Virus record (IMG/VR): IMGVR_UViG_3300009117_000044
Coordinates: 4,688-68,687 of that record
Length of the DNA stretch: 64,000 nt
Origin: a virus
Direction: 5' to 3' (one strand)
Shown: positions 4,479 to 51,036 of the stretch, piece after piece
How positions within the stretch are numbered: position 1 is the stretch's first letter
How the letters are laid out: each line of letters opens with the position of its first letter
The notes under the pieces: model-generated
Seen by the model: the letters and a program-made list of their open reading frames with translations, nothing else
Databases searched by the model: none
Told to the model about the DNA's origin: nothing
Made by a program: the position numbers and the translations under genes

Positions 4479-4480
4479 GA

Positions 4481-27239: not shown

Positions 27240-27240
27240 T

Positions 27241-27780: not shown

Positions 27781-27810
27781 GTTTTCACCCCACTTTTCTA
27801 AAAGTCTTTA

Positions 27811-27895: not shown

Positions 27896-27898
27896 GGC

Positions 27899-28261
27899 TC
27901 AGTTGCGAATTTGTCGATCACCGAGTTCTAAATGAATCTTGTTGTGACAGGATTTACATAAGGACATCAGATTACTTCTATCGTGTGTACCACCTTGAGA
28001 AACAGGGAGGATGTGATGCACTTCATCAGTGGGAGTCAGTCTGCCGTCCGCTTTACACATCTCACACAGTGGATGTTCCTGTGCATACCGGTCTCGGATT
28101 CTTTTCCAGGCTCTGCCATACTTTTTATTAACATCACTTGACCGTTGGTACTTGTCATAGCGCCTACGCTCTTCTACTCGATGGTCTTCACAGTACTGGC
28201 CATCGGTTAAGTTGGGACAGCCTGGTGTACTGCATGGTCGTTTTGGTTTTCTTGGCATCAT
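27899..28261 (-). CDS. Packaging-associated HNH endonuclease
   Basis: CEMC, EVHHILP..QGG, NLMSLCKSCHNKIH intact HNH. Confidence 0.9.
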   Translation of the reverse strand: MMPRKPKRPCSTPGCPNLTDGQYCEDHRVEERRRYDKYQRSSDVNKKYGRAWKRIRDRYAQEHPLCEMCKADGRLTPTDEVHHILPVSQGGTHDRSNLMSLCKSCHNKIHLELGDRQIRN

Positions 28262-28283
28262 ATCACCTCGCTTTCTGGGCATA

Positions 28284-28320
28284 GAAAAAGCCCTGCAGGG
28301 CGCATCCCACAAGGCTTGGT
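28284..28320 (-). terminator. Terminator-like hairpin upstream of HNH/late operon
   Basis: AAGCC..GGCTT stem followed by TTTTCT on minus strand. Confidence 0.45.
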
Positions 28321-28376
28321 AAGTATTCTATCTTGCTGATTATAATGTAACATGAAGATGAGGTGCTTATCTCTGC

Positions 28377-28829
28377 TCAAAAGTGCTCATTGCTGTTCAA
28401 CATTTGAATAACAATTGGATTTTCAGGTACGACAACGTGATTTAAGGCATTGCCATGCCATCTGCGAATGGTACTCTTATCAGCATTCAGCTCATCGCCG
28501 ATTTGCTCCCAGGTAAAGTTATGAACGTAGCGGTAACGTAACACCATGCGTTCATCGATATCCGTTACTTTATTAATCACATCTCGAATCTCTGCTTTAA
28601 GTGCTACAAGATGATCCACCTCATCATTAATCTTGATTTGAAGTTCTTCAATTCGCTCCAGGTATCTGACAAACAAGGCATCGGTATGCCGCTGGGTTTG
28701 TATTCTCTCACCCCAACTAGGGGAGGAAACACTGGTCGATAGCTCCCTTAGCCTTTCCATTTCCTCAATGTTGGATTGGATTCGTTTATCTAGCCTGTAG
28801 GCTTGATGTAAATATTCTTTTGCTTTCAT
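28377..28829 (-). CDS. DUF1492/ArpU-like late transcriptional regulator
   Basis: MKAKEYLHQAY, VLRYRY..NFTWEQI..EL....STIRRWH..AL HTH. Confidence 0.8.
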   Translation of the reverse strand: MKAKEYLHQAYRLDKRIQSNIEEMERLRELSTSVSSPSWGERIQTQRHTDALFVRYLERIEELQIKINDEVDHLVALKAEIRDVINKVTDIDERMVLRYRYVHNFTWEQIGDELNADKSTIRRWHGNALNHVVVPENPIVIQMLNSNEHF

Positions 28830-29050
28830 TACTCGCTCACCTCCGCTTGTAGCTTTTTGATTAGGACGTTCCCATCAACAGAGGTAAGTTCTCTATACCA
28901 ATCAGAGCGGAAGAACCTCTCCACCTCGTTTTTCAAATCTTGTGCCGGTCCATATCTAGGCCGTTTCATTAGTTTCTTTAAAGCATCTCTATAATCTTTA
29001 ACAGCCATCAAAATAATGGCATTGGCTAAATCTTGATAAGGTTCTGTCAT
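28829..29050 (-). CDS. Small phage hypothetical protein
   Basis: YQDLANAIILMAVKDYR, VERFFRSDWY..LT; coupled ORF. Confidence 0.75.
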   Translation of the reverse strand: MTEPYQDLANAIILMAVKDYRDALKKLMKRPRYGPAQDLKNEVERFFRSDWYRELTSVDGNVLIKKLQAEVSE

Positions 29051-30414
29051 CGCATCACCTCTAAATTCGCCTTTACCGCATCAATCAAGGCATCTTGAGT
29101 TTTCTCCTTTTTTGTGAGTGCAAGCAGCACGTCTTCATCGATGGTGTTTTTGGTGATGATGTGGTGGACAATAACTGTATCACTTTGACCCTGCCTATAA
29201 AGTCTTGCATTAGTTTGCTGATACAGCTCTAGTGACCAGGTCAGACCAAACCAGATCAGAGTCGAGCCGCCGCTTTGAAGATTAAGACCATGACCTGCAC
29301 TGGCTGGATGAATAACAGCAATGGGTATCTTGCTATTATTCCAATCCTCAATATCCTTCGATGACTGAATTTGTCTGACCGGAAATCGATCTTTAATTCG
29401 TTCTAAATCATGCTTATACCAATAAGCAACAAGGACCGGTTTCCCATTAGCTCCTTCGATTAAATCTTCCAAGGCATCTAGCTTTTTGTCATGAATCACA
29501 TGAGCCTTATTCTCGCTATCGTATACTGCACCATTTGCCATCTGTAGCAGTTTTCCAGAAAGGACTGCCGCATTAACCGCATCAATATCTTCATCACCTA
29601 AGTTAGCCACCATGTCTTCCTTGAAATCTGAGTAAACCTTCCATTCCTTATCACTTAAAGTGACAAATACTTCATTGCTGACATATTCAGGCATCTTGAG
29701 ATAATCAGTAGATTTCATAGAAATGGTGATGTCTGATATTTGTTTGTAGATTTCCTCTTCAGCGCCGGGTAGTGGTTTATAAGAAAATATAATCTGAGCA
29801 TTTCGCTTATCTGGCTTAAAATAGGTATTTCGATAATGACTAATGTAGCGTCCAAGCCTTTGACCCAAATCAAGAATTCGAAATTCTGCCCATAAATCCA
29901 TCAATCCATTACTGGAGGGAGTACCAGTAAGACCGACAATTCTTTTTACAGAGGGTCTTACTTTAAGTAGACTCTTAAACCGCTTTGCGCCATAAGACTT
30001 AAAGGATGACAATTCATCAATGACCACCATATCAAAATGAAAAGGAATACCACTTTTATGAACCAGCCAATCTACGTTCTCACGGTTGATAATGTATAGC
30101 GTTGATTGTTTTTTGAGGGCATCGATTCTTTCTTTTTCCGTTCCCACTGCCACTGAATAAGAGAGTCCTTTTAGATGATCCCACTTTTTGATTTCTGCAG
30201 GCCAAGTATCCCTTGCTACTCGAAGTGGAGCAATGACTAGCACTTTACATACGAGAAAACTGTCTAAACACAAATCAAATATGGCGGATAAGGTAATCAC
30301 ACTTTTACCTAAACCCATTTCAAGAAATACAGCCGATATGGGATGGGATAAAATGAATTCAGTGGCATAGCTTTGGTATTCATGTGGCTTGTATTTCACT
30401 AAGTATCCCTCCAA
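29047..30414 (-). CDS. SNF2-like helicase
   Basis: MGLGKS, VIDELS, LTGTP, HPASAGHGLNLQ, QTNARLYRQGQ. Confidence 0.92.
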   Translation of the reverse strand: MEGYLVKYKPHEYQSYATEFILSHPISAVFLEMGLGKSVITLSAIFDLCLDSFLVCKVLVIAPLRVARDTWPAEIKKWDHLKGLSYSVAVGTEKERIDALKKQSTLYIINRENVDWLVHKSGIPFHFDMVVIDELSSFKSYGAKRFKSLLKVRPSVKRIVGLTGTPSSNGLMDLWAEFRILDLGQRLGRYISHYRNTYFKPDKRNAQIIFSYKPLPGAEEEIYKQISDITISMKSTDYLKMPEYVSNEVFVTLSDKEWKVYSDFKEDMVANLGDEDIDAVNAAVLSGKLLQMANGAVYDSENKAHVIHDKKLDALEDLIEGANGKPVLVAYWYKHDLERIKDRFPVRQIQSSKDIEDWNNSKIPIAVIHPASAGHGLNLQSGGSTLIWFGLTWSLELYQQTNARLYRQGQSDTVIVHHIITKNTIDEDVLLALTKKEKTQDALIDAVKANLEVMR

Positions 30415-30661
30415 TCTGTTCTATATCATCCAGGCAATAGACTAGAAAGCCTAATGCCTCTAATTGCTTCTTTCTTTTATTTTGTAAAGGTCGCATCTTT
30501 TTCCCTGTTGCCTTACATTCGACAAAGGCGATTCTTCCCATGGGAAGTAATACAATGCGATCAGGCATTCCATCTATTCCAGGACTCACAAATTTCGGGG
30601 CAATACCTCCCATGCTTTTTACTGTCGCTACCAGTTTTTGTTCTATATATTTTTCTTGCAT
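30380..30661 (-). CDS. VRR-NUC domain nuclease
   Basis: EKYIE, GMPDRIVL, FVECKA, RPLQ. Confidence 0.88.
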   Translation of the reverse strand: MQEKYIEQKLVATVKSMGGIAPKFVSPGIDGMPDRIVLLPMGRIAFVECKATGKKMRPLQNKRKKQLEALGFLVYCLDDIEQIGGILSEIQAT

Positions 30662-30684
30662 AAATGACCTCCAACAATTCATCA

Positions 30685-30968
30685 GGAACAACAAGCACAA
30701 CTTTTAACGTTTTTTCCTATACGCGCGCATACACACGCTCACGATGCTTTACTACTACTATTTATTAATTTATTACTAAGTAGTAAAACTCTTGTTCCAC
30801 TCATTCCAGTAAAGCCAAAATGTCGGTAATGACTGGGTTTTTAAGAGAACAAGCATAAGGAACAACTAAGGAACAATGAACGACCTTACTCATTCTTCTC
30901 GTAACAACGTTGTCTACCGTAAATGGGAAAATTACTTGTTCCATTCTTGTTCCCTTGGTACTTGTTCC
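30685..30968. repeat. GGAACAA repeats around an AT-rich palindrome, candidate replication origin
   Basis: GGAACAA at 30685, 30859, 30870; TTGTTCC at 30792, 30936, 30947, 30962; TTTACTACT..AGTAGTAAA around AT-rich core 30748-30787. Confidence 0.55.
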
Positions 30969-33243
30969 ACCCATTAATCTTTTTCATAATGCCTGCAATG
31001 GCATAAGAGTCTGCAGGTTTCATGGCGGAGGCATCCCTTCCAAAGCATTCACACCAAATTTCCATATTACAAACAAGCGTACGTTCAACCGTACCGACAC
31101 GGGATTCCCCACCAAATTCACTACCGTTTAGGTAGTTTCTTCGCTCGTATAAGGACAGGGCATTCCAATCATCGGGTAAAAGCGTATCGAGATAGCTGCG
31201 AACAAGGCCTTCTCGCTCATCACTTTCCATGGCATCTGCCTGCTCATTCGTTGCCAACTCTACATCACTGCCCTCTAAATAGAGCTTTTCACCTTTGGCA
31301 TAAAGCACCAAAGTTTCTGCCCAAATCTGCTCTACATCGTATACGGACATCTGCCATGCTTTTCTTTTACCATCACCACTAATACGCACTGGCCAGAATC
31401 TTCGGTTACCCGTGATGTCTCGCAAAAATCCACTTTCTGCATTGGTAGAGCCGACAATGATACATTGACGAGGATGGCTTTCAACATTCACCCCATAACT
31501 GGCACGGTATTTATCATCGGATCTTGAAATAAAGGATTTCACGACTTCTACATCGGTTTTTCGCATGCCAGCTAGTTCACCCAGTTCTAAGATCCAATAC
31601 CCTTGAAGTTTCTCAGGGCCTGCTTTGTCTTTCATATCGGTGAGGGTTAAACTATCGGAAAACCAATCGCCTGCAAGCTTTGCAAAGAAGGTAGACTTAC
31701 CGATGCCTTGTGGTCCATTCAGAATTAAAACGCTGTCGAATTTCGTACCAGGTTGAACAATTCTAGCGACTGCTGCCACCATCATTTTTCTAGTAACGGC
31801 TCTGGTATAGGAATTATCTGTTGCATTAAAATAATCAATCAGTAAGGTCTCAACGCGATCGGTTCCATCCCAATCTGGTAGATGATCCAGGTATTCTTTT
31901 ATAGGATGATAGGATCGCTCTGCTGCGACTGCTAGTATTGCGTCCTTTGTTTTGGTTGGGGAGTAGATGCCATATTTATTAGACAGATAAACTTTAAGGG
32001 CTGCATTATCTGAATCATTCCAGCCGCCCTTCATTTGCTCCCAAGGCAATCCTTCTCTTGCATCGATTCCATCACGGTGCTTATTAAAAGCAATGGATTC
32101 TAGTTCTGAATCGTTACGGATGATGAGAACGATATTATCCAAGGTGTCCTTAATCTTTCCTTGCTTATCCAATTCAAGGGCTGTCTGCCAGTTGTCTTCA
32201 GTAAAATCGATTGTTGCCTGTTCCATCCGCTCTTTCGTAAACTGTGCTTTTACTTCATCGTCTTGGATAGCAAATTCACACATGTTGATAAAGGATGGTA
32301 GTTTACTTGGTGGCGTACTTTCTGTTGCCCTATCATCTAAATGACCAAATCGATGGATGCGAACAAGGTCAAAAGCATTAAGCAGTCTCCCACTTGCAGG
32401 ATCTGTTGCGTGATGGGAATAGGAAAACTTATCATCATAGAGTATGACCCCGGCACTGGAATCTGCAGGGATATAATCATAGCGACCAGCCATTACTGAA
32501 GGCTCGTATATATCCTTTAAGAACCTATCGATTGCACTACTTACTGAGTAAGTACGGCAAAAAGTACCGATGACACCTTCCTTAGAAAGCGGATCGGCTT
32601 GTTCTTTTAATGAGCGGTCAAGGACTTCTGACTGCCTAGAGGATACCGGCCAAGTACTGGTATCTCGCCAATCATCGTATTTATTTAGAAATACATCAGG
32701 GTCTAAGAGAGAACCGTCTTTTTCTTCATACACAAAGACACCGTTTCTAGAGGTAGACGGCCAATACATTAATCGTTCTGGTTCATAGGTTGTATCATCA
32801 AAAAGGTCGATGCCGATTTCTTTTGCGACCATGCGACTAACGGCTGCATACTCTTCCTCTCCCAAATCACGAAAGAGAGGAATAATCAGTCTTAGTCTTG
32901 GATGTTCTGGAGTATGCTTATGAGTAGAATAAATACAACACTGATAAGGGAAGAAGGTAGAGATTTCTTCCCAGATAGTACTTGTGCCATAATCCATATC
33001 AAGGGTGAGCATGGATCGTGATAGAACATTCCCTTTTTTACGTCTACCATCTTTTAAATGACCGCCTACAAAACCTCCCACATCTTTAATGGAATCTTGG
33101 CCACCTTTTCTCATTTTTCGATATTCTTCTACGGTTTCAGTAGTACGCTGTGTGGTCTTAACACGGGAACAGAAATCTTCCCAGTTAATATCGCTGTTTT
33201 TCCACTTTTTATCCATTCGGCTATTGCCGTATGCTATCTTCAT
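30886..33243 (-). CDS. Primase-like plus VapE-family helicase
   Basis: YSTHKH..PRLR (primase-like), GPQGIGKST Walker A, ILELGEL, DITGNRRFWP. Confidence 0.9.
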   Translation of the reverse strand: MKIAYGNSRMDKKWKNSDINWEDFCSRVKTTQRTTETVEEYRKMRKGGQDSIKDVGGFVGGHLKDGRRKKGNVLSRSMLTLDMDYGTSTIWEEISTFFPYQCCIYSTHKHTPEHPRLRLIIPLFRDLGEEEYAAVSRMVAKEIGIDLFDDTTYEPERLMYWPSTSRNGVFVYEEKDGSLLDPDVFLNKYDDWRDTSTWPVSSRQSEVLDRSLKEQADPLSKEGVIGTFCRTYSVSSAIDRFLKDIYEPSVMAGRYDYIPADSSAGVILYDDKFSYSHHATDPASGRLLNAFDLVRIHRFGHLDDRATESTPPSKLPSFINMCEFAIQDDEVKAQFTKERMEQATIDFTEDNWQTALELDKQGKIKDTLDNIVLIIRNDSELESIAFNKHRDGIDAREGLPWEQMKGGWNDSDNAALKVYLSNKYGIYSPTKTKDAILAVAAERSYHPIKEYLDHLPDWDGTDRVETLLIDYFNATDNSYTRAVTRKMMVAAVARIVQPGTKFDSVLILNGPQGIGKSTFFAKLAGDWFSDSLTLTDMKDKAGPEKLQGYWILELGELAGMRKTDVEVVKSFISRSDDKYRASYGVNVESHPRQCIIVGSTNAESGFLRDITGNRRFWPVRISGDGKRKAWQMSVYDVEQIWAETLVLYAKGEKLYLEGSDVELATNEQADAMESDEREGLVRSYLDTLLPDDWNALSLYERRNYLNGSEFGGESRVGTVERTLVCNMEIWCECFGRDASAMKPADSYAIAGIMKKINGWNKYQGNKNGTSNFPIYGRQRCYEKNE

Positions 33244-33674
33244 AAAGCCTCTACCTCCTCAAAATCCTTATTGAAATATCTGACCGGTTGTCTACGTTTC
33301 TTTGCCTTTTCTATTTCAATACTCATGCCTCTTGAGATCACATCACCTAGAACCCAGACCTCTTGGCATTTGCCCATCAGGATAATATCCATAAAAATAG
33401 CGAGCTCACGTTCTTTCTCATTGCTGTCATCCATAAACTGTGGAAATAAAAGGTGAGGAGCAAGCGGAATATTGCCCTTATCTAAAGCAAAACGGCAAAA
33501 TGATCGTGTGCGCTTATTGTTGTTTTCTATATCGCCACTAAAGGGAGAGCAAATATAGACAAGGGGCTTAAAGGCAGCTTTTGCTGCTGCCTTTTCCTCA
33601 CGGGTGATATTGCTAAGTGCTTCATGGGGAGTTGTGTCATAATATCCTTCTGCATTGAATTTATTGATTCCCAT
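33240..33674 (-). CDS. DUF4406-like protein
   Basis: LVYICSPFSG, PLAPHLLFPQF, CQEVWVLG..IS.GM..EI. Confidence 0.8.
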   Translation of the reverse strand: MGINKFNAEGYYDTTPHEALSNITREEKAAAKAAFKPLVYICSPFSGDIENNNKRTRSFCRFALDKGNIPLAPHLLFPQFMDDSNEKERELAIFMDIILMGKCQEVWVLGDVISRGMSIEIEKAKKRRQPVRYFNKDFEEVEAL

Positions 33675-33675
33675 A

Positions 33676-34458
33676 TCACACCTCCATCTCAATCTGCGGA
33701 TAAATACCATCCGCCTTTAGCTGTTCATAGATAAAGAGTCTGCCTTTTTGTGTCCACTTGGTATGCACTTTCGTATGTTGGATACCCTTACTATCTTCAT
33801 AAATGTGAGTATTAGTCTTGGTATATCCATTAGGAGCATACTTTTGATAAAGAAGCCAAATATCGCCTTGTTTAAACTGAATCCCTTTTTCATGAAGGTA
33901 TTCGTTCATGCGCATGGCACTCCAGCCATAATCTTTAGCAATCACAGAAATATTGACTGCATCCCTGCATTTAAGAACCACATCATAATAAGTAGCCTTG
34001 GGTTTCATCTCAGCGATTTGCTGTTGACCAATCGCAACGGCCGCCATCAGTTCCTTGTTCTTTTCTCGTTCCTCTTTCAATGCAGTAAATGCAGCAATAG
34101 CAAGGTCTGGATTTGCGATTAAATCGTCTGTTGCATAAAGTCCATGTTTGCGAATAGCAGGGAGGACTTCACTTGTCACCCAGCGTTTGAACTTTTTAGC
34201 ATTTGGCATCTTGCTTGAGAGGATGAGACTATACAGACCAGACTCGTTGATAGCAGTCATCGTTTGATTTCTTCCGATGGCGTCACGAATCGTTACGTCA
34301 TCCTTGTCCTCTTCATCAACATGGTCAATTAAAGCTTTTCGAGTATTTGAGTAACCAAGAATACCAGCTACATCCTTACCCACAAAATAAGGTTGACCGC
34401 CAAGCGTTGTAGTACGTACAGAGCCAAACTCTGCATTTTTGTAAACTTGTAATTCCAT
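33676..34458 (-). CDS. BRO-N/KilA-C antirepressor
   Basis: FVGKDVA.ILGY, INESGLYSLIL.SK, FKRWVTSEVLPAIRKHG, WTQKGRLFIY. Confidence 0.92.
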   Translation of the reverse strand: MELQVYKNAEFGSVRTTTLGGQPYFVGKDVAGILGYSNTRKALIDHVDEEDKDDVTIRDAIGRNQTMTAINESGLYSLILSSKMPNAKKFKRWVTSEVLPAIRKHGLYATDDLIANPDLAIAAFTALKEEREKNKELMAAVAIGQQQIAEMKPKATYYDVVLKCRDAVNISVIAKDYGWSAMRMNEYLHEKGIQFKQGDIWLLYQKYAPNGYTKTNTHIYEDSKGIQHTKVHTKWTQKGRLFIYEQLKADGIYPQIEMEV

Positions 34459-34497
34459 TCGAATTACCTCCTTGTATTTTTTGGAGGTCTTAACCTC

Positions 34498-34537
34498 CTA
34501 CCTAGTAGCCTTGGGAGAAGGTCAAATCTGACGGTTT
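34498..34537 (-). promoter_or_regulatory. Bipartite motif copy B overlapping 3' end of sigma-like gene
   Basis: AAACCGTCAGATT-N14-GGCTACTAGGTAG, matching copy A. Confidence 0.55.
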
Positions 34538-35064
34538 TCAATTTCTTTTCTTAATTTTTGTGTAGCTCGCTTTAACTTCTGGGTAATGTTGTTTTCACTT
34601 ACACCGATGGAACTGGCATATTCTCGAATCGACATACCGTCAATTCGTACTGCAATGAACATATCTGCCCAGTCCTGTTTTTTACCAAGAGCGGTACGTA
34701 TCCATTTGCAGACAGATTCGTACTCATCTTGGAGACTCTGTTCTATCTCCTGAGAATTATCAGCGAAAGTATCCATGACATCTATTTCAACTTCATCATC
34801 TTTTCGATAAGGTGTCTTTGGATTACCAAGATGCCTATGGTAGCGACGCCAATGGTTATATTCCTTGTTGTTCATGAGGTCGAACATTTCTTGTAGAGTC
34901 TCGCAGCGTTTCACCTCTTCCTTCTTTTCAGGCTTTGCTTCTGCAAGACGTTGCTCATAGTCGATATCCAGCATGACGCTGTAATCTCCATCTGGAATTT
35001 CAATTGTGGTGTAGTTCTTGTGACCGTTTTTGATGTTGTCTTCATATAAAACTCGAATCTTCAT
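34522..35064 (-). CDS. Sigma-70 region 4-like transcription factor
   Basis: C-terminal HTH GMSIREYASSIGVSENNITQKLKRA; first large gene of early operon. Confidence 0.8.
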   Translation of the reverse strand: MKIRVLYEDNIKNGHKNYTTIEIPDGDYSVMLDIDYEQRLAEAKPEKKEEVKRCETLQEMFDLMNNKEYNHWRRYHRHLGNPKTPYRKDDEVEIDVMDTFADNSQEIEQSLQDEYESVCKWIRTALGKKQDWADMFIAVRIDGMSIREYASSIGVSENNITQKLKRATQKLRKEIENRQI

Positions 35065-35067
35065 AAA

Positions 35068-35350
35068 GTATTCCTTTCCGCCTAGTCATTGGGCGGCGGA
35101 ATACAAAAAGAGCCTGCGGTGAAGATGACCACAGACTTCGCATGTCCTAAAAAAGGGCACACGAAATAACGGTGGGTGCATCTTCATTCCAAACACAGTC
35201 TTTATCACTGTGTTCTGAACTCTTATGCATCCCGCCGTCCGTATGCGCACTAGGGACTTTGAGATTGATTTTTGAGCGATAACCGCTCTGGTAAATAACT
35301 CCCTTAGGGAGGATAGGTAGGCTGATTATTCAAATCTGTCTCTACCTATC
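35068..35350 (-). promoter_or_regulatory. Structured 5' leader (candidate cis-regulatory RNA) with RBS-occluding hairpin
   Basis: Stems at 35312-35350, 35299-35311, 35274-35288, 35174-35233, 35068-35104. Confidence 0.55.
35105..35139 (-). terminator. Intrinsic terminator directly upstream of sigma-like gene
   Basis: GAAGTCTGTGGT/ACCGCAGGCTC stem then TTTTTG. Confidence 0.65.
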
Positions 35351-35364
35351 AATTTGGATAATGT

Positions 35365-35508
35365 TTACTTCTTCTTGCATGGTCTTGTTTGACTTAAAGC
35401 ACTGCCTGCAACCGATTTGGCTTTCTTGCTGTAACGTCCATCGCTAAGAATTTTGCTTGCTTTTGATGCAACTCTTTTTGATGTTTGCTTCGAATTACGT
35501 TTTGCCAT
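35365..35508 (-). CDS. 47-aa basic peptide, absent from ORF track
   Basis: AAAGGAGG SD; MAKRNSKQTSKRVASKASKILSDGRYSKKAKSVAGSALSQTRPCKKK. Confidence 0.75.
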   Translation of the reverse strand: MAKRNSKQTSKRVASKASKILSDGRYSKKAKSVAGSALSQTRPCKKK

Positions 35509-35652
35509 TTACGTTCCCTCCTTTCATTTTTTGGATTCATGCATTCATTTTCGTAAATATAATGTAGATTTTCGCAAAGATACATGATAGAATATCTTTG
35601 TTATGCCTTAACTAAATGATGCTGGTTTAAATCCTATCTACATAATATAAAA

Positions 35653-35706
35653 ACCCACCTTTCGAACTGGGTACGTTCCAGGTCGAAGATGGGTACAAAG
35701 TGGGAC
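35653..35706. promoter_or_regulatory. Imperfect inverted repeat, candidate operator
   Basis: ACCCACCTTTCGAACTGG..CCAGGTCGAAGATGGGT plus TGGG(T)AC repeats, between divergent units. Confidence 0.4.
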
Positions 35707-35731
35707 AACTATCTTGAAAGGAGTTAACGTA

Positions 35732-36853
35732 ATGGAATTTAATGATTTCTTCAATCTAATGAAACCTGTACTAGGTAAAGAAAGAGCAAATGCTAAGTTG
35801 GTGCGAAACCTAATAGCTATGATTACTAAAACTGATAGCGATGTTGACCCTTCTCAAGATCAGTCAGATGACACTTTGAAATCTTATGCAAATGGAAAAA
35901 GACCTCTGTCTCCTGAATATGCTAGAGGAATAATCGCAGAGATTGAATTTCAAAATTTTGTTGATTCGGTGAATTCAAACGATGAGGTTGTAATTGAAAG
36001 ACTATCAGATAGTTTTAAACCGTATGATTCAACAGTAACTCCTGATGTAGTGGGCACAGTTGCAGGAAAAATTTTCTTAGAAATCCTTTATAAAGCTGCT
36101 GGTGAAAACACTGATGTGCAAAAGTCCTTAATGCCTTCAAAGTATTATTTAAGACATAGATATGGAAATCAATTGTTAGTAGAAAACAAGGGAAATTGCC
36201 CTTTTAAGGGGTGTGGTAAACCCCTCTTATTGAGTAACAACGAAGCAACACAAGCATATTTTGACGTGATTATGATAGATAGTGAAAGTGGAGAGCATAG
36301 CGAAAATTTAATTGCTCTTTGTCCAGAATGTGCAGCAAAATATTTACTATCTCATACAGAAGAAGAACAAATCGAGTTGCAGGATTTAAAGATATCTATG
36401 TATGAACTTTTATTAGCTCAGAAGTCACTTACAGATATAAAAGTTGAAGAAGCCATATCGGAAGTTTTGGAAGTTCTTTATGTAACTGATCCAAATGAAA
36501 TCACCAAGTTAAATTATGAACCACAATCCGTAAGAGATAAGATTTATAAGAATAATTACCTCTTATTAAGAACTAACATTTTTAATGTGACTCAGTATTA
36601 TCCGTTTATTGAAACACAGTTTAAATCTTTGTCTAGAGAAAAGAAAATGAATTACAATGTGTTGTCCTCGCAAATAAGACTTGCGTATGTCACAGCATTA
36701 GAAAAAACAAGTGTGCAAGACGAAATTTTTAATTCCCTCGTTGAGTGGCTTATGGGAATCACAAAAAAGCCAAGAGTAGCCTGTGAGATAGTTATTTCGT
36801 TTTTTGTACAGAAATGTGAGGTATTCGATGCTCCTTCCAAACAAACTGTTTAG
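35732..36853 (+). CDS. lmuA: LmuA-like ABC-three-component protein: HTH-like N-terminus, degenerate HNH/Zn finger, C-terminal domain
   Basis: SD GAAAGGAG; CPFKGC..NLIALCPEC; C-terminal KI..N..YY..IE..F..L..CEIVISFFVQKCEVF typical ABC-3C CTD; operon context. Confidence 0.75.
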   Translation: MEFNDFFNLMKPVLGKERANAKLVRNLIAMITKTDSDVDPSQDQSDDTLKSYANGKRPLSPEYARGIIAEIEFQNFVDSVNSNDEVVIERLSDSFKPYDSTVTPDVVGTVAGKIFLEILYKAAGENTDVQKSLMPSKYYLRHRYGNQLLVENKGNCPFKGCGKPLLLSNNEATQAYFDVIMIDSESGEHSENLIALCPECAAKYLLSHTEEEQIELQDLKISMYELLLAQKSLTDIKVEEAISEVLEVLYVTDPNEITKLNYEPQSVRDKIYKNNYLLLRTNIFNVTQYYPFIETQFKSLSREKKMNYNVLSSQIRLAYVTALEKTSVQDEIFNSLVEWLMGITKKPRVACEIVISFFVQKCEVFDAPSKQTV

Positions 36854-37070
36854 CTATAAAGAAAGTACCCTGGCTAAATTTCCAGTACTTATAAAGTGCT
36901 TGAATAATAGACCTTACTCGGTAGAGGAATTATATAACACAAACAAAAGACTGTTTTTAGATATAGAAGATTATACAGAAACGTTATGCTGTCTTTATGC
37001 ATTAAGAAAAATCGAACTCGATGAAGAAAGGGGCGTGATTGTCTATGTTGAAGAAGATTCAGTGCGATAA
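36828..37070 (+). CDS. lmuC: ABC-three-component middle component (LmuC-like)
   Basis: MLLPNKLFSYKESTL..L..LYAL.KI motif; overlaps both neighbours. Confidence 0.75.
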   Translation: MLLPNKLFSYKESTLAKFPVLIKCLNNRPYSVEELYNTNKRLFLDIEDYTETLCCLYALRKIELDEERGVIVYVEEDSVR

Positions 37071-38682
37071 ATTTATTTCCAAAGGGCAAGTGCGTCCACC
37101 AATAGAGTTTAAGAAGGGGCTTAATACGATTCTTGGAGGTGTGAATGCTAATAACTCCATCGGCAAATCAACTTTGCTACTTATTATTGACTTTGCATAC
37201 GGCGGAAACTCCTACCTTGATAGCGATGCTGTAAACCAAGTGGGACTTCATACAATTAATTTCGAATTTGAGTTCAATGGTACATCTTACTTTTTTTCTA
37301 GAAGTACCACGCAGAGAACTACAATTAATAAATGTGATGAGCAATTTAATTTTATTGAGGAAATTAACATTAAGGACTTTTTGTCTTTTTTACAAGAACA
37401 GTATGGAGTTAATTTTTATGGAAGTTCATTTAGAGAGCTAATTAGTCGCTACTTTAGAATCTATGGAAAGAACAACCATGACGAAAAGAAACCCCTACAT
37501 AGTGATCCAAGAGAAAAAAATGTAGCCGCAATTACTGCATTAGAAAAGTTATTTAACTCATTTGAGGTTATTGAGTCATATAGAACAGAATTTAAAAAAG
37601 TATCTGACAAACTTGATGCCCTCAAGAAAGCAAAGAAACAAGATGTTATCTCGTACGGCTCTATCACAACAAAGAAGCGTTATAACGAAAATCTTAATGA
37701 GTTAGAAAAACTCAAAGATGACTTGAGAGATCACACTGTCTCTAATAACTCCAAATATGTAGACCTTGATTTGAAACAGGCAGATCAGATAAGTCAAATC
37801 AAGACTCAATTAAACATTTTGATGAGAAACAGAACGTCAACTAAAACACAGTTAAGTCTTGTTGAAGACAATCTCTCTTCAAATCCGGAAGTTCATCATG
37901 GTCCTTATGAAGAGTTAGAGCAGTTCTTTCCCGGGGTTAATATTCGCAAAATATCTGAAATCGAATCTTTTCATGAAAAATTAAGTGAAATACTGATGGC
38001 TGAATATGAGCAACAGAGAAAAGAGTTGAGCAAAAATCTTGAACGGTTAAATCATGAAATTGATAGCCTGAAAAATCAGCTTTCTAAGCATGGAGAGCCA
38101 GCAAACTATTCAACTACTTACCTGAATAAATACAAAGAGTTAAATCTTGCTATAGAAAGACTTGAAGCGCAAAACCGGGATTATATTTTGGTTGAGGAAT
38201 TAAATGTTTCAAAGAAGGGTGTCAAAGAACAACTTCAGAAAGTTGAAGAAGCTGAATTGCGTAGGATTGAGAGCAGCATCAATGAGCAAATGGTGCGATT
38301 TAACGATAGAATCTACGAGAAAAAAAGAAAAGCTCCTGTGCTAGATTTAGACAGTGGTACAACTTATGAATTCTATACACCTGATGATAGTGGTACAGGA
38401 ACTTCATATAAGAGTCTTATTGTATTTGACCTCAGTGTTTTAGAAACAACTATGTTGCCTGCATTGGCACATGACTCTCTTCTATTTAAAAACATTGGTG
38501 ACGAACCGCTCAATAAGATTATTCAGCTATACACAGAGTTTGACAAGCAAATATTCATTGCTTTTGACAAAGGCGAATCTTACTCTGAGGAAACTAGTCA
38601 AATTCTTAATAGTACTGCTGTCATTCGCCTTAACGAAAATGGCGATGAACTATTTGGACGCTCATGGAATATCAAGGAGTGA
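37045..38682 (+). CDS. lmuB: SMC-like ABC ATPase, DUF2326 (LmuB-like)
   Basis: Walker A NSIGKST, long coiled coil, SGTGTSYKSLIVFD, HDSLLFKNI, QIFIAFD. Confidence 0.85.
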   Translation: MLKKIQCDKFISKGQVRPPIEFKKGLNTILGGVNANNSIGKSTLLLIIDFAYGGNSYLDSDAVNQVGLHTINFEFEFNGTSYFFSRSTTQRTTINKCDEQFNFIEEINIKDFLSFLQEQYGVNFYGSSFRELISRYFRIYGKNNHDEKKPLHSDPREKNVAAITALEKLFNSFEVIESYRTEFKKVSDKLDALKKAKKQDVISYGSITTKKRYNENLNELEKLKDDLRDHTVSNNSKYVDLDLKQADQISQIKTQLNILMRNRTSTKTQLSLVEDNLSSNPEVHHGPYEELEQFFPGVNIRKISEIESFHEKLSEILMAEYEQQRKELSKNLERLNHEIDSLKNQLSKHGEPANYSTTYLNKYKELNLAIERLEAQNRDYILVEELNVSKKGVKEQLQKVEEAELRRIESSINEQMVRFNDRIYEKKRKAPVLDLDSGTTYEFYTPDDSGTGTSYKSLIVFDLSVLETTMLPALAHDSLLFKNIGDEPLNKIIQLYTEFDKQIFIAFDKGESYSEETSQILNSTAVIRLNENGDELFGRSWNIKE

Positions 38683-38687
38683 GAATT

Positions 38688-38909
38688 ATGGGTATCAGTC
38701 TAAGCTACAACCGATTATGGAAACTGTTGATAGATAGAGGAATGACTAAGCAGGATCTTCGAAAAATCACAGGTCTAAGCTCTGCCTCAATTGCTAAGTT
38801 AGGCAAAGGTCAGAATGTTAACACTGATGTACTAATTAGAATATGCAATGCGTTGAACTGCGATTTACACGACATGGTAGAAACTGTTCATGATGAAAAT
38901 ACTATATAG
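38688..38909 (+). CDS. Cro/C1-type HTH protein
   Basis: SYNRLWKLLIDRGMTKQDL..SSASIAKLGKGQNV.TDVL.RIC.AL. Confidence 0.88.
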   Translation: MGISLSYNRLWKLLIDRGMTKQDLRKITGLSSASIAKLGKGQNVNTDVLIRICNALNCDLHDMVETVHDENTI

Positions 38910-38937
38910 AATAATAAGATAAGAGGAGGTATGGGTT

Positions 38938-39834
38938 TTGACAATGACATTTGGTGCTGCTGAGCATCGTATACTCGATATGTTTAAAATTGGAACACGT
39001 TTTATATTTGATGACATTGAATATGTTGTTACTGTTTCTGGTAAACCCACTTGTAGTAAAGGTGAACCCAAAACAGATATCTATATAGGAGCAAAGAGCT
39101 CCATTAATACAAATAAAGAATTTAAGATTTCATTCAAAAAGATTAACGCTGATTTTCTAGAAAATAAGACTAATGCAGAACGCGCCGAACAATTACTTGG
39201 AAGCGAATGGGATAATATTATCGCAATGGCAACATCTAATATTAAGGATGCTTTTCTTTCAAGACCGTTAATTTATAGAGAAAAGTTTGGAAGAACTGAT
39301 GCGGGAGCAATTACATTAGGCTGGAAGTTTGAACTTCTAAATGTCCTAAGCGGTCAGTTAAGCGGTGTCATAGACCTCTCAAGAGAACAAGTTATTGATG
39401 TTTATGCAGGTACTAATCTCGCGGGTGATAAAAAGGATTCAACAGTCAATCGTATCATAGTTCCCAACAGTGGAATTTCAAACTATATTCTTTTTGAAAA
39501 TAAAGCATTTGGCAGTGTCCAACAGGTAATTGATTCACTAATAACCGTAGAGGATTATGTTGAATTAAACCCCAATGTATATTTTGCATGTAAAGCCTTA
39601 AACTATAGAACTTTTAAGAAAAAATATGACGGTAATAGACCTCTCGCTGTTTATGTTGATTGGTTTGTAAGAGAAGGAAAATTGGCATATAATCTTAATT
39701 TCGATACTCCATTGAAGCAAGGTGGTAATTATGCTTTCGCAAGATTAAAATCCGCGTTAGATGCTCTCGGTGTGGAAACAACAAATGACTTAAATTCATA
39801 TAATGTAGAGAATAGTAATATAATATTTGGCTAA
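38938..39834 (+). CDS. Putative type II restriction endonuclease
   Basis: EPKTDIY...KISFK resembles a PD-(D/E)XK active site; convergent with C5 methylase; family not assigned. Confidence 0.6.
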   Translation: MTMTFGAAEHRILDMFKIGTRFIFDDIEYVVTVSGKPTCSKGEPKTDIYIGAKSSINTNKEFKISFKKINADFLENKTNAERAEQLLGSEWDNIIAMATSNIKDAFLSRPLIYREKFGRTDAGAITLGWKFELLNVLSGQLSGVIDLSREQVIDVYAGTNLAGDKKDSTVNRIIVPNSGISNYILFENKAFGSVQQVIDSLITVEDYVELNPNVYFACKALNYRTFKKKYDGNRPLAVYVDWFVREGKLAYNLNFDTPLKQGGNYAFARLKSALDALGVETTNDLNSYNVENSNIIFG

Positions 39835-39875
39835 AAAAAGATGGTGCCTATCAAAACTTAGGCACCATCTTTTTT
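39833..39875. terminator. Bidirectional intrinsic terminator
   Basis: AAAAAAAGATGGTGCCTA/TAGGCACCATCTTTTTT between convergent genes. Confidence 0.85.
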
Positions 39876-39877
39876 AG

Positions 39878-40879
39878 TTACTTAAGAACTTCTTTAATTG
39901 CCACTGCAATCTCATAAGCAAGATTAACTGGAACAGCATTACCGATCATCTTGTATGCATTATTAACATCAGTATATATAAACTGAAAATCATCTGGAAA
40001 ACCTTGGACTCTAGCAATTTCTCTTACTGTCATTCTTCTATACAGTGACTCTTTGCCTTCAACAAATCTACAGTCATTCTTTCCTACCTTTACCATTTTC
40101 GGTGCTTGTGGATGCAACTGGCATTGTCTTCCTGAGGCTTGTACGGTATAAGCTTGCTCGTCCCAAGACTTTACCCTATTTCGGCTCATAAAAATTGGCG
40201 AGAAAGCTCCTGTAAAGAATTCATTATTGTTTTTTGCATTAGGATTATGCTTGTTTTTATCTGCGGCAGGAACTGCAGTATCCTGTAAATCCCAGATAAT
40301 ATCTCTAAGCGTAATTTTCTTATCATCCGAAACGGTTGACCCCTCTGGAAAATCAAACTTGATATTTAAATCTTTTCTAAATCCTATATAGAAAACTCTC
40401 TTTCGCTCTTGTGCAACACCATAATCCTTAGCATTAACCATTGTTAAAGATACATTATACCCAGCGTCTTCAAACATTTTTAGAATGTTTTGTACTGCAT
40501 CTGAATGTCTATTCGCAAGCATGCCACTTACATTCTCTGCTAGAAAAAATTTTGGTCTGAACTCTTTTAATATTCTAATATAGTCAAAGAAAAGTTGACC
40601 TCTCTCATCCTTAATTCCTTTAAGAGAGCCTGCCTCTGACCATGATTGACAGGGAGGACCTCCAATTATTCCATCAATATCTCCGTTTAAGTATTTTTCC
40701 ATATCAACTTTGGTAACTTGACGAATGTCACCCTCTATTAACTTAGTATTAGGATGATTAACCTTGTAGGTACTCCAAATAGTTTTATCAAAATCGTTAG
40801 CAACAGGGATTTCAAATCCTGCCCGTTCAAATCCTAAATCTAAACCACCGCAACCACTAAATAAACTAATAATCTTCAC
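39878..40879 (-). CDS. C5-cytosine methyltransferase, M.HaeIII-like (probably GGCC)
   Basis: [28 protein letters not shown]; target region [27 protein letters not shown] matches M.HaeIII as recalled; GTG start overlaps upstream TGA. Confidence 0.9.
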
Positions 40880-41094
40880 TCTTTTTCCTCCCAAACTTTT
40901 CTATCAACATCAAAAGGCAAGTTGTTTATGTTACAGAACTCTTTTATTTTCTGCAATGCTTGATAATTGGGAGTTGCTTTTCCATTTTCCCAACGATTTA
41001 CTGTAGAAAATGAAACACCTAATGCATGAGCAAAATCCGTCTGACTTAAAAGACATTTTCGTCTTATATTTTTTATTGTTTCACATAAATCCAC
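40876..41094 (-). CDS. XRE HTH, candidate R-M controller protein
   Basis: [30 protein letters not shown]; coupled to methylase. Confidence 0.8.
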
Positions 41095-41234
41095 AACAAT
41101 ACCTCCTATCCATTTATATAGCTTTATTATAGCATATATGAAGCTTTTAAGAAAGCCTTTTTAAGAGAAATATTAAGTCAATTATTAAGGGTCAGTTATT
41201 AATAGAAATCAGTAATAAATGATAATAACAGACA

Positions 41235-41289
41235 GCCAACCATCTTATCAACTCACCATTGTTTTGCCAATCATCTTATCAACTCACCA
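41235..41289. repeat. Two 24-bp direct repeats, 31-bp period
   Basis: GCCAA(C/T)CATCTTATCAACTCACCA at 41235 and 41266. Confidence 0.8.
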
Positions 41290-41358
41290 CATCAACAATT
41301 ATTACGGCTGATATTTTTTTATTTCATCATTCTTGGATAACTTCCCTCAAAGCAAAAA

Positions 41359-41403
41359 TCCGTGATTATCCTTCCGGCTTAGAACCAGATCTCAAATCAC
41401 GGA
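41359..41403 (-). terminator. Long hairpin/terminator downstream of rlmD-like 3' end
   Basis: TCCGTGATT..AATCACGGA stem then TTTTTG on minus strand. Confidence 0.55.
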
Positions 41404-41433
41404 AAGCCTTTATTTACTTATCTTATTACACGC

Positions 41434-41533
41434 TTACTTATCCACCCTTGACATCAATACTACCGTCTCAACGTGGATTGAGAGGATAGCATTGATGTTT
41501 TATGCCTTTGTCCGTTGTAGGAAACTGGTCAAC
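41434..41533 (-). pseudogene. rlmD(rumA)-like 3' terminal fragment
   Basis: VDQFPTT (41513-41533), 37-nt gap, HVETVVLMSRVDK* (41434-41475). Confidence 0.7.
41452..41497. other. Candidate serine-integrase att site
   Basis: 20-bp arms CATCAATACTACCGTCTCAA / TTGAGAGGATAGCATTGATG, 17/20 inverted match, around CGTGGA. Confidence 0.7.
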
Positions 41534-42163
41534 GGTAATTTACTTACTTTTTCCGAATAAAGCAAATAATCAAAGCGCTTTTATCTTAACATTTGTTAAA
41601 CCCAAAAACAATAGATGGGTTGAAGAAACGAAGCCTTTTAAGCTTACTTTTAAAATAATAAACGTATTATAAAAATTGAGAGTTTGGAAAGTTCTAAAAA
41701 TATGATTTAATACCAAATTCATGGCCAAGTGCAAAGTAAGCGCCACTATTATCGATACATACAGTGTCAACTTGACATTTAAAAGTTAGATCTGCAGTAA
41801 TTTTGAAGCATCATTATTTCTGTACAACATAAAAATTTACCAAAAAACAGCGCCAACAACTTATTTTCAAGTAGTGGCACTGCATTTTTTTGTTTTGATT
41901 GTAACTGTTCAGGCTTTGTTTATTAATATTTTCAGCCTTACCTCGTTGAATAACGCCAATGATGGACTTTTGTGAAACGTGTAAATCGGACTATACTGAA
42001 TTTATACTCAATTCTTCACAACTCATTGCCTTTCTCAACTTGATGAAAATGCATTTTAACTCCTTGGAATCTCTGCTATTTCATTATATTGATTCCACAT
42101 ATTTTTTACCTAGTACGGCCTTTCTTTTCTCTTGGTAAGTTCATTTATCCTAGCGCTTTCGCA

Positions 42164-45100
42164 TCATTCCTGTGCTGTTTCAGTATCAATGGCAAGTTCC
42201 ATAAAACGCTTGAGCATAGCAGAAACCTCAGCTCTGGTTGCCATACCCTGGGGGTCAAATACATTGTTACTCTTCCCGCTGATAATGCCTGCCAGCTGTA
42301 CTTTTTCCACAGCATCTTTTGCCCATGTGCCAATCTTAGCATTATCGGCAAAGGTGCTCACTTCGTTCACCTTTGGCAATGCAACCCCCATAACCTTGGT
42401 GTAGTTATTCAAAATAACCGCCATCTGCTCACGGGTAATTGACTGGTCAGGCGCAAACTTTCCATCTTCCATGCCAGTTACAATATTATTCTTACTTGCC
42501 CACTCAATATATGGCATATAGTAAGCATCATTTTTCACATCGCTAAAGCTGGTATTGGTGTATTTCTCTGTGTCCACCTCCGCCATTCTCCCAAGGGCGG
42601 TTACAAACATACCTCTCGTCATGGATGAATCTGGGCTAAAAGTAGAAGCAGAAGTGCCGCTGAACAATCCACGGCTTACTGCAAACGCAATGCTTTCCTT
42701 CGCCCAATGGTTTGTAATATCAGTAAACTCCGAATTTGTCTGTTTATAACCTATGCCGTAGGTAGAGAAGTGTTTTGTGCTAAAGCGAACCACCTTTTTT
42801 GTCCTATCATAGACAGAGTCAGTCAGCCACTCCACCTTGCCGTTATCGTCTATATAAACCGCACAAATATTGTCTGCTTCTTCATTTTCGCCAAGCGTAT
42901 ATGGAATTTCCACCGTTATGCTGCCTTCACCGAAATTTTCCACCTGTCTACCGCTGCCGTAATTTACCTTGAGGACAAAGACAGGACGAGAGCCAACTGC
43001 CTCTTTTGCTTCATCCGTCAGCCCTTTATTATCTGCCTTTGCAGCCGTAAGATTCACATCTGTTTTTGCCTGTTTATTGATTTCTTCCACAGCAGTTAAA
43101 TCCATACCGATTAAAATATCAGGACTATCAACCATGACAACTGTGCTGACAATTTTTTTGCTGATGATAGCATCCTGCACTGCCTTTGGCAAATTAACGG
43201 TCATAGTGTTCGCCGTTTGATTGCCTGTATCTACACTCAGCACAAGGGTAATTCCATTTTCCTCGTTGCCATTTTTCTTTGCATCGGCAATGGCCTTATT
43301 AAAGACATCCGTAACATTCTTATCAGTTATGGTTATGGTGACATGATTATTTTGGTCAACCTTGCCACTTAATATGATTTCCCCCTGCGTTGGAGTGCTT
43401 GGTTGTTCTGCTGGAGGCGTAATTACAATAATTTTGGAAGCACTGTCATTGTTATTAATAATGTTATTGCTATTACTTCCGCCGCCGCCGGAACTACCAC
43501 CGCCTAAATATGTCCAGCGGGCATAAATGGTGTCATTGCCTGTAAAAACAGTATCAGTGGTCACCTGTGTGCCGCCGCTTAGCGCTGTAAACCAACCATC
43601 ATAACGATAGCTGCCGCTTCTTGTGGGCGTAGGCAGACTTGCAAGCTTGCCCTCTAAGCTTGTTGCTGTAGTGGTAGGGGTAACCGTGCCGCTGTTTGCA
43701 TCAAAAGTAATGATGCAGGCACCTGTTACAGTAAAGCTTATATCAAAGCTTTGCGCAGTGATGTCGCTTGCGTTACCGCTCGCCTTTTCCACGGTTACCG
43801 TTGCAGTATAAACACCCCCAGCAAGGCCTGTGCTTGGTTTTACGCTAAAGGTATCATTGCCGCTTGCTGCAATGCTATCAATACTTGTTTTATTCAGGGT
43901 AAAACTGCCGCTGTTTGCACCAGAAAGTGCTACGGTCAATGCGCCAGTAGGCTGATTTCCAGTGTTACTTACCTGCACAGTGAGTGCGCCTTGTTCCCCA
44001 TAGCCCACAATTGCCCCAGCAAAGATGTGGGTACCTGTTTTATCCAAGCTGATTCCATAGGTTGGCGTTGGGCTGTATGCCCCAATGGTAAAGGTGCTTT
44101 CAGCGCCTGGGTTATGGGTTTCAGTTTCTTTCACACGCACCTTATACTCGCCGTTACTTAGCCCCGTGATTGTGCTGCCAGTGCCATCTGTCCAGTCTGC
44201 ATCACTTGACATTTTATATTGCATATCAGTGGTCACACCAATGAGTGTGCCATCGTTGTTGTCTGCCGTCGTGCAGTTTGTTACAGAAACACCGCTTACC
44301 GCTAAGCCATCTGCTTTTGCAATCGTCCCAGTTGTACTGCCGCTGATTGCACCTGTTTGAGCATCGCTTGTTACTTCACAGGTGATGGTGTTGCCAATAT
44401 CTTCCTGAACTGTGGTGTAGGTTGCATCTGTGCCCAAATTCGTGGCGCCACGCTTCCACTGATAGGACAGCGTGCCTGTGTTGTTGTCACCACTTAGCGT
44501 TGCCGTAAGAAGTTCATTAAATTTTAAAGTGCCGCTGATTGTCACTATGCCCGTAAATGGTTGATTTTCCCAAACTGCATACACCGTTGTGTCCTCAGTA
44601 AAGGTATGTGTACCCCCTGCTGCCACCTTCGTGCCATCTGCACTTCCTATCGCCCATTCCTTAAACTGCTTACCCACAGGCGGAGTGAGGGTACAGCTTG
44701 GCAAGGTGAAGGCTATATCTTCCAATGCTGTGCCTGTGCTCATCGTGCCTGTGCCACTGTTATTATCATAGGTTACGGTATAGCTGGCAGGTGTATTATT
44801 CACCTGTAAATAGCACTGGGTAAGATCTTCTAATATGGTTGATGGTTCCACAAGGGTATCATAGCTTGTGTCATCTGCAGAGGATAAAAATGACTTTCCG
44901 CTGCCAAGTAATGTGGAAGCCTCACTTTGAGGTGCATCAACACCACTCGGGTCGATAGCCCTTCCAGAGTTGCCACTCTTTAGCGTACCTCCGTTTAAAG
45001 TAACGCTATTTGAACCAACCGACATAGCACAACCATGCTTAAAGATGCCCTCACCGCCCGTAATCGTTCCATTATTTACTATAACGGTGGCACCAGCAGC

Positions 45101-51033: not shown

Positions 51034-51036
51034 GTT

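Follow-up and report, generated by a model that had tools for sequence, protein, structure and literature searches.

What does an immune sensor do at the very position of a prophage at which a repressor gene would be expected? The question is raised by a Lamassu-like cassette in a viral sequence (IMG/VR record IMGVR_UViG_3300009117_000044, positions 4,688 to 68,687), of which the whole stretch of 64,000 nucleotides (nt) was analyzed and is referred to as the window in the following. The cassette lies on the plus strand at positions 35732-38909 of the window, in the first of its two prophages (prophage 1), where the gene order confirms it as the first unit divergent from the minus-strand early operon. 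An earlier note, made from the sequence alone, had accordingly spoken of a repressor slot and proposed a defense sensor rewired as a lysogeny switch, with a helix-turn-helix (HTH) domain fused to an LmuA effector whose HNH domain looked dead. Judged from its sequence, the locus is an accessory and self-contained module of the Lamassu family (ABC-3C type, composed of CTD11, MC7, and DUF2326 proteins). The explanation that we favor, with slightly more confidence than doubt, is that of an autoregulated, phage-borne Lamassu variant with a released effector that acts without DNA cutting.

Architecture of the Cassette

The operon consists of four genes. The first (35732-36853, +) encodes an LmuA-like protein of 373 amino acids (aa) that is spanned over its full length by phrog_6948, bears a C-terminal docking domain (CTD) of the CTD11 family on residues 229-365 (36416-36826; Pfam E 4.6e-35), and was modeled as a whole by AlphaFold2 with a predicted local distance difference test (pLDDT) value of 82. 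It is followed by an LmuC-like middle component of 80 aa that begins with MLLPNK (36828-37070, +; Pfam MC7 E 1.4e-20; phrog_6259) and by an LmuB-like coiled-coil ABC ATPase of 545 aa (37045-38682, +; Pfam DUF2326 E 1.2e-18; phrog_5467 E 5e-139), which among the PADLOC models matches PDC-M68B (E 1.7e-14) and, weakly, LmuB (E 7e-6). All three proteins thus match full-length PHROG families, each of unassigned function. Both junctions between these genes are 26-nt overlaps, and the start of the MC7 gene was read directly as an ATG with a Shine-Dalgarno sequence. The fourth gene (38688-38909, +) starts 5 nt past the ATPase stop and encodes a small HTH_26 protein of 73 aa (YozG-like, XRE type; Pfam E 1.6e-18). 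The coupled three-gene operon that had been described before hence stands as far as its three overlapping genes at 35732-38682 are concerned, but it is one gene short, and the HTH gene at 38688, which had been listed as a rival repressor, is actually the conserved fourth cassette gene.

The CTD11, MC7, and DUF2326 matches also bear out the assignment to the Lamassu/ABC-3C systems: coiled-coil ABC ATPase, small middle component, and an effector with a C-terminal docking domain are all recognizable by sequence. What the module does not have is an enzymatic effector domain, given an HNH without both of its His residues and an N-terminal domain (N-domain) without any conserved polar residue. In the ATPase, a Walker A motif (NSIGKST), a signature-like motif (DSGTG), and a Walker B motif (AHDS) were found, and these (NSIGKST, DxGTG, and HDS) are identical in systems of this kind, in which the LmuA-like protein carries the N-domain and a dead HNH (long forms), and in sister systems with an active HNH and no N-domain (short forms). 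Since the motifs are the same in both, it is probably not the sensing part that has changed but the output.

An Effector without Nuclease Chemistry

Behind the N-domain and a linker, the LmuA-like protein carries an HNH-like zinc finger (residues 136-208, 36137-36355, +), and PADLOC recognizes residues 136-221 as the HNH part of mREase_IV, a type IV restriction enzyme. The finger retains C156, C161, C197, C200, and N192; M181 (codon 36272-36274), however, stands in place of the catalytic (general-base) His and A201 (codon 36332-36334) in place of the metal-binding His. The packaging HNH of the same phage at 27899, which had been put forward as an intact counterpart, is indeed so (HHI...CKSCH). 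Among 240 homologues from two database searches, none of the 212 with an N-domain has both catalytic His residues (194 have neither, 16 only the last, and 2 only the first), whereas 19 of the 22 short forms keep both. The same split between long and short forms holds across a survey of 140 loci from IMG/VR, GTDB genomes, and phage records. By its residues, the HNH of the LmuA-like protein is catalytically dead, as had been suspected, and this is a trait of the whole clade. The region is still HNH-like (McrA HNH profile, E 2e-7; weak Foldseek matches to McrA and Cap5) and is under stronger constraint than the rest of the protein, with a ratio of nonsynonymous to synonymous substitution rates (dN/dS) of 0.03-0.11 in comparison to four close relatives, as compared to 0.03-0.26 for every other part. 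A recognizable HNH under such strong constraint therefore represents a retained, non-catalytic zinc finger and not a product of decay.

The N-domain (residues 1 to ~125, 35732-36127, +) is matched by the PADLOC LmuA model PDLC03857 on residues 1-134 (E 8e-16). A model of the isolated domain, built with 50 homologues, shows seven helices (pLDDT 91.7, predicted template modeling score 0.85), so that a real and well-folded domain was confirmed at this position, but the proposed HTH found no support from Pfam, the Protein Data Bank (PDB), or hhalign. Comparison with solved structures returned nothing meaningful (best VIA-align Z 5.0, Foldseek E above 0.5); there was no match in a PDB profile search, none of significance in a feature-based search of the ESM Atlas, and across 50 members no Pfam family apart from one HTH_3 match at E 0.005. 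In hhalign, the probability against HTH_26 was 0.3%, i. e., there is no profile similarity. The domain is acidic (net charge -7 here; mean -4.4 and negative in 83% of the 212 homologues), and all positions conserved at ≥50% are hydrophobic or structural.

More informative is where this fold occurs. In the AlphaFold DB, it heads proteins without names of 142-439 aa (template modeling (TM) scores of 0.74-0.86), and in the ESM Atlas it was found on CTD11 proteins, on CTD6 ABC-3C proteins, and on 713-aa NACHT+SNaCT14 NTPases (TM 0.61-0.81). On the basis of these models, we read the N-domain as a non-enzymatic module that several conflict systems have in effector position. Beyond relatives of the domain itself, the next neighbors in shape are XRE-type HTH proteins, with weak scores (TM 0.34-0.43). 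The segment TLKSYANGKRPLSPEYARGII resembles helix-3/loop/helix-4 of XRE domains, and the position of XRE helix-2 is taken by a variable acidic loop. The N-domain is possibly derived from the XRE fold, while a DNA-binding HTH is not demonstrable in it. A second copy of the domain that could serve as a homotypic partner was found neither in the contig nor in the 140 loci. Complex prediction with residues 1-210 of the LmuA-like protein and HTH_26 gave a score of 0.00, which is no verdict and counts neither way.

The HTH_26 Gene and Its Control Region

Of 89 evaluable long-form loci, 77 have an HTH_26 homologue behind or overlapping the ATPase gene, as opposed to none of 22 loci with an active HNH (Fisher p 6e-15, uncorrected for relatedness). 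HTH_26 is the best conserved protein of the cassette, with 50-68% identity as compared to 33-50% for the ATPase and 29-36% for the LmuA-like protein. Homology with close relatives extends to 38899-38900, just past the HTH_26 gene, and then breaks. Because homology with relatives that carry a different restriction-modification (R-M) system ends right behind it, the gene belongs to the cassette. A function as C protein of the downstream restriction enzyme was also considered and is ruled out by this break.

The 223-nt gap upstream of the LmuA-like gene is a control region shared with the leftward early operon. Motif enrichment points here to two operator-like half-sites, TTCGTAAA at 35550-35557 and TTCGCAAA at 35571-35578, that lie 21 base pairs (bp) apart, and 14 nt past the start of the proximal one an extended -10 element, TGATAGAAT, of a putative cassette promoter is present (35585-35593, +). 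When counted with one mismatch allowed in 51 non-redundant upstream regions, the octamer TTCGCAAA is 4.6-fold enriched over shuffles (1.39 versus 0.30 per locus; top shuffle 0.53), and half-sites cluster 150-230 nt upstream of the first gene, usually in pairs 20-21 bp apart. The +14 spacing to TGATATAAT-like elements recurs in six further loci (L009, L019, L021, L023, L066, and L133). In these as well as in the window, the proximal site falls within the spacer of a TTGAAA-17-TGnTATAAT promoter pointing into the cassette, and the distal half-site lies directly upstream of the -35 element. Such paired half-sites around the -35 of the cassette's own promoter suggest autoregulation by HTH_26, which, from its linkage and from this predicted operator, is the probable autoregulator of the cassette.

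A search of 34900-41600 against Rfam yielded nothing real. Contigs from compost and wastewater metatranscriptomes cover early, late, and cassette genes alike over 23000-42500; these carry neither level nor strand, and DNA carry-over is possible.

A Variable Slot at the Prophage End

Prophage 1 shows a Heliusvirales-like order of cassette, early genes, primase, helicase, HNH, terminase, structure, lysis, DUF2800, SSB, PolA, and serine recombinases, and its early operon comprises, in this order, a 47-aa basic peptide, a sigma-like gene, a Bro-N/KilAC antirepressor, a deoxyribosyltransferase, and a VirE-type primase. Over 36-42 kb, the G+C content drops from ~42% to 33-36%. The papers on phi1207.3 and Heliusvirales make no mention of a repressor. 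Whether the slot next to the early promoter is reserved for a repressor was assessed in a survey that was anchored on the primase and hence independent of the cassette. Of its 17 evaluable loci, 8 hold an ABC-3C cassette and 9 none, and in 7 of these 9 the primase is 89-98% identical to that of this phage, with R-M or McrBC-like genes in place of the cassette. Related phages hence show no common DNA-binding repressor at this place, as 9 of 17 loci are devoid of the cassette and of an HTH_26 gene of this type.

Six kinds of occupants were seen in the slot among sibling phages with an 89-98% identical primase. Besides the cassette described here (L141), they include a dead-HNH CTD11/MC7/DUF2326 system in which the HTH_26 gene is placed first (L144 and L147) and a CTD6/MC2/AAA_23 ABC-3C system that carries the same N-domain (E ~1e-22) with no HNH at all and ends with HTH_26 (L145, L149, and L220). 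The other siblings are without any ABC-3C genes and carry a type I R-M system plus YgjP (L142, L143, and L146), McrBC-like genes (L148 and L153), or an LlaJI-type R-M system (L151), and none of them has a small HTH_26 gene. The term repressor slot can therefore not be upheld. The location represents a hot spot for cargo, flanked by the early promoter on one side and, on the other, by the right end of a Heliusvirales-like prophage of the triple-serine-recombinase kind.

Several details of these loci are worth recording. In the CTD6 cassettes (L145:2206-5487, L149:1809-5345, and L220), the genes encode an N-domain+CTD6 protein, MC2, an AAA_23 ATPase (609 aa) that features a CPFC zinc hook, and HTH_26, and the two-site promoter design is alike, with differing (GTGAATTT-like) repeats. 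Next to the sigma-like gene, the cassette-less L143 has a gene (4245-5831) whose product of 528 aa contains an HTH_26-like stretch (residues 418-464), while L148 (2549-4435) and L153 (2572-4461) have one for a 628-aa protein with no Pfam match. The 47-aa basic peptide (35365-35508, -; phrog_5079, E 6.7e-22) is present in siblings with any of the three cassette types (L141, L144, L145, L147, and L149; no match in L220) and was not detected in those with R-M or McrBC-like genes; it may be part of the swappable unit rather than of the core early operon.

Cargo is exchanged on the other side of the cassette as well. In the window, HTH_26 is followed by a type II R-M system (38938-41094) that is composed of a restriction endonuclease (REase; 38938-39834, +), a C5 methylase (39878-40894, -), and an HTH_3 gene of its own (40876-41094, -). 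Among 91-95% identical relatives, L007 keeps this system, and in L008 and L061 it is replaced by two further systems of type II, i. e., an ApaLI-like REase with an N6/N4 methylase and a different REase with a C5 methylase, and homology resumes beyond the swapped genes at ~41241. Long-form systems, for their part, also exist without HTH_26 among cellular genes, beside Abi_2 and DUF4417 genes. Taken together, the variable slot, the swapped cargo, and the cellular long forms imply that the cassette is phage-associated but accessory and resides in a defense hot spot.

As for the borders of prophage 1, homology with relatives ends at ~41476-41487, and contigs of four RNA-library runs pass into unlike sequence at 41475-41486; this is likely the right end (attachment site), in agreement with the one assigned previously. 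The left end, which follows PolA outside the window (G000:C1:1-5931), has two large serine recombinases flanking a ~137-aa gene, and the same arrangement is repeated at 49468-53040, at the left end of the second prophage of the window. At 23122-27239 (-), genes for a C5 methylase, for a fusion of ParB with an N6/N4 methylase, and for an S-adenosylmethionine synthetase stand in a row and look like an anti-restriction set.

Distribution and Co-variation

In the survey of 140 loci, a divergent sigma-like gene was present in at least 64 of 106 long-form loci and in none of 22 short-form loci. In the homologue survey that had been suggested, the dead HNH thus goes along with both the presence of the N-domain and a location opposite to divergent sigma-like genes of phages. 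All four phage records with a relative of the first protein, namely Ruminococcus phage NatCom_28274 (Ca. Heliusvirales) and the Streptococcus phages Javan422, phiStag1, and PhiSdyV1524, show the cassette divergent from a sigma-like gene, and three of them run on into a small XRE gene, while the fourth record ends at the ATPase gene. LmuA-like homologues form 721 clusters at E≤0.001, of which hundreds are diverged and full-length. No full-length match to the long form was found in 72,556 plasmids, and for most genomic copies that had been classed as unassigned, the divergent neighbors match PHROG families.

In a mirror-tree analysis, the three ABC-3C proteins co-vary (r 0.55-0.90), whereas the N-domain shows nothing beyond shared history with HTH_26 or sigma (partial r 0.02-0.03; sigma distances are saturated), and cassette-protein distances do not track the adjacent sigma-like gene (r ~0.13-0.15). 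One 162-kb IMG/VR contig contains two diverged four-gene cassettes (L012 and L018) with LmuA-like proteins that are 33% and 32% identical to that of the window and with nearly identical HTH_26 recognition regions.

The type of system is already known, and defense catalogues hold models for its parts. As far as could be checked, three features are undescribed: the coupled loss of HNH chemistry and gain of N-domain and HTH_26 in a phage-specific clade, the N-domain common to CTD6 systems and NACHT proteins, and the conserved promoter/operator design.

Comparison with Known Systems

The closest studied counterparts are type II (short) Lamassu/ABC-3C systems such as V. cholerae DdmABC and Salmonella enterica LmuACB (PDB 9hqu), which share the order of effector with CTD, middle component, and coiled-coil ABC (SMC/Rad50-like) ATPase in three overlapping genes. 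The Pfam families CTD11 and MC7 were defined for ABC-3C systems, and it is the N-domain that is matched here by the PADLOC LmuA model. While the studied effectors are Cap4-type nucleases, the effector of the cassette is without an active enzyme domain. Further differences are the additional HTH_26 gene, the carriage by a phage, and an ATPase (DUF2326, Walker B HDS) with no sequence match to solved LmuB. Even closer in sequence are the HNH-type CTD11/MC7/DUF2326 systems with an LmuA of ~250-270 aa (Pfam HNH_2 + CTD11), which have the same families, zinc finger, and ATPase motifs. These short forms, however, have both catalytic His residues, no N-domain, and neither an HTH_26 neighbor (0/22) nor a divergent sigma-like gene (0/22), and just one of the 22 loci has a single other phage-hallmark match.

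With respect to regulation, the cassette would resemble R-M controller (C) proteins and the Aca regulators of anti-CRISPR operons, which likewise feature a small HTH protein encoded in the operon that it appears to repress and paired sites on a strong promoter; in the present case, a different HTH subfamily (YozG-like HTH_26) is linked to ABC-3C, and binding is predicted. Defense functions in or tied to a lysogeny control region are also known from lambda cI-rexA-rexB and the KKP module of Pf prophages (PMC11341870). Unlike in those, the regulator is here the last gene of the defense operon, sibling phages do without the entire unit, and any link to lysogeny would be hypothetical.

Proposed Mechanism

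In studied Lamassu systems, LmuA is held as an inactive monomer via its oligomerization domain, and DNA-end sensing frees LmuA, which tetramerizes into an active nuclease (bioRxiv 10.1101/2025.03.14.643221, 10.1101/2025.06.23.660979). By analogy, the ATPase dimer and the middle component of the cassette probably hold the LmuA-like protein via its CTD and would release it upon sensing foreign DNA ends. The freed, oligomerizing protein would then act non-nucleolytically via its N-domain, perhaps together with a DNA-binding but inert HNH finger. HTH_26 would meanwhile repress the near-consensus promoter of the cassette through the two half-sites 21 bp apart around the -35 element. With an output that is non-nucleolytic and tightly repressed, it may be possible for the phage to harbor a sensor of DNA ends and still complete its lytic cycle.

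Several points weigh against this picture of an autoregulated, non-cutting defense variant. The N-domain has neither a catalytic signature nor a known fold, so that no effector mechanism can be named, and the DUF2326 ATPase is without a sequence match to solved LmuB and has HDS instead of DE or DQ at its Walker B motif. An anti-phage role is predicted from the genes, and promoter and operator are putative, as they represent consensus matches only. Furthermore, the pairing of N-domain and HTH_26 persists across two different ABC-3C cores and hints at a link in function beyond pure defense, and the conserved part of prophage 1 yielded no further XRE-type regulator.

Competing Explanations

An alternative that we regard as unlikely is that the output is regulatory; it draws above all on the constant pairing of N-domain and HTH_26 across two ABC-3C cores and on the missing enzyme. 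The SMC-like (structural maintenance of chromosomes) sensor would detect DNA ends or damage, and the N-domain of the LmuA-like protein would titrate HTH_26 or bind the divergent control region, thereby derepressing the cassette and/or the early operon, so that the locus would serve as an induction or infection sensor. The non-enzymatic head with its dead HNH is consistent with such a role, as are the vicinity of the early promoter and the constancy of N-domain and HTH_26 while the core swaps between CTD11/MC7/DUF2326 and CTD6/MC2/AAA_23 in siblings. The nearest non-relative shapes of the N-domain, weak as they are, all belong to XRE HTH proteins, with the one HTH_3 match among 50 members pointing in the same direction, and no S24-type (peptidase-type) CI was found among the prophage-1 open reading frames scanned, as had been stated before, in a scan that was not exhaustive. 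Yet siblings with an 89-98% identical primase exist without the cassette or HTH_26, and the N-domain, acidic and conserved in hydrophobic positions only, also occurs on NACHT proteins and on cellular long forms without HTH_26. Moreover, the paired sites bracket the cassette's own -35, and the N-domain does not co-vary with HTH_26 or sigma beyond shared history.

In its specific form, a DNA-end or infection sensor wired to transcription, the freed oligomer would capture HTH_26 or occupy the divergent control region via a degenerate XRE-like N-domain and switch on the cassette and possibly the early operon; this version is less likely still. The lysogeny switch of the earlier note, in particular, is left unsupported by operator-like sites on the cassette's own promoter and by cellular N-domain/dead-HNH systems that do without HTH_26.

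A related proposal, which appears improbable to us as well, is that HTH_26 is the maintenance repressor of the prophage and that the ABC-3C genes travel along on the transcript of the lysogen, comparable to rexA-rexB behind cI of phage lambda. No XRE-type regulator other than HTH_26 is conserved at this prophage end, and HTH_26, as part of the cassette, is transcribed divergently from the early operon, with half-sites that lie within the shared 223-nt control region; the Javan422 record even starts with the HTH_26 gene and has nothing beyond on that side. Against this, the gene is absent from sibling phages, and the sites are located on the cassette-direction promoter. It is also unusually conserved, with a half-site motif shared across phages of different phyla, and the near-identical recognition-helix regions of the two cassettes on one contig (L012 and L018) are atypical of immunity determinants.

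Much less plausible is a counter-defense decoy, in which a nuclease-dead Lamassu look-alike would occupy DNA ends or poison the effector tetramers of a host Lamassu. A dead nuclease under strong constraint would fit such a role, and so would a long form that is phage-carried and rare elsewhere, down to the missing full-length matches in plasmids. A decoy would, however, have no need for a complete ATPase and middle component of its own, the CTD11/MC7/DUF2326 parts co-evolve as tightly as those of a closed system would, and similar systems occur in cellular defense-island settings. That the locus is a decaying remnant of an HNH-type Lamassu without current function, as the loss of both catalytic His residues might suggest, is hardly credible in view of a dN/dS of 0.03-0.26 in all parts, which already contradicts decay, of intact and overlapping reading frames, and of hundreds of diverged full-length homologues.

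Implications

According to present understanding, Lamassu senses DNA ends and then releases a nuclease by which the infected cell is killed. The cassette would represent a large and diverged phage-borne branch, encompassing hundreds of protein clusters, in which nuclease chemistry was dropped, a helical domain took the place of the effector, and a repressor of its own was acquired, with a domain in effector position that is also used by NACHT-type immune proteins. The locus furthermore marks a terminal hot spot of defense genes that Heliusvirales-like prophages of the gut have in common with relatives from streptococci, and in some of the latter this region carries resistance genes. If the transcription-wired reading were true, this would be a Lamassu-type immune sensor with a regulatory and not a lethal output. 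In any case, the function of the N-domain would show how a phage carries a DNA-end sensor without setting it off against itself, and could reveal a non-enzymatic or regulatory output of SMC-like immune sensors.

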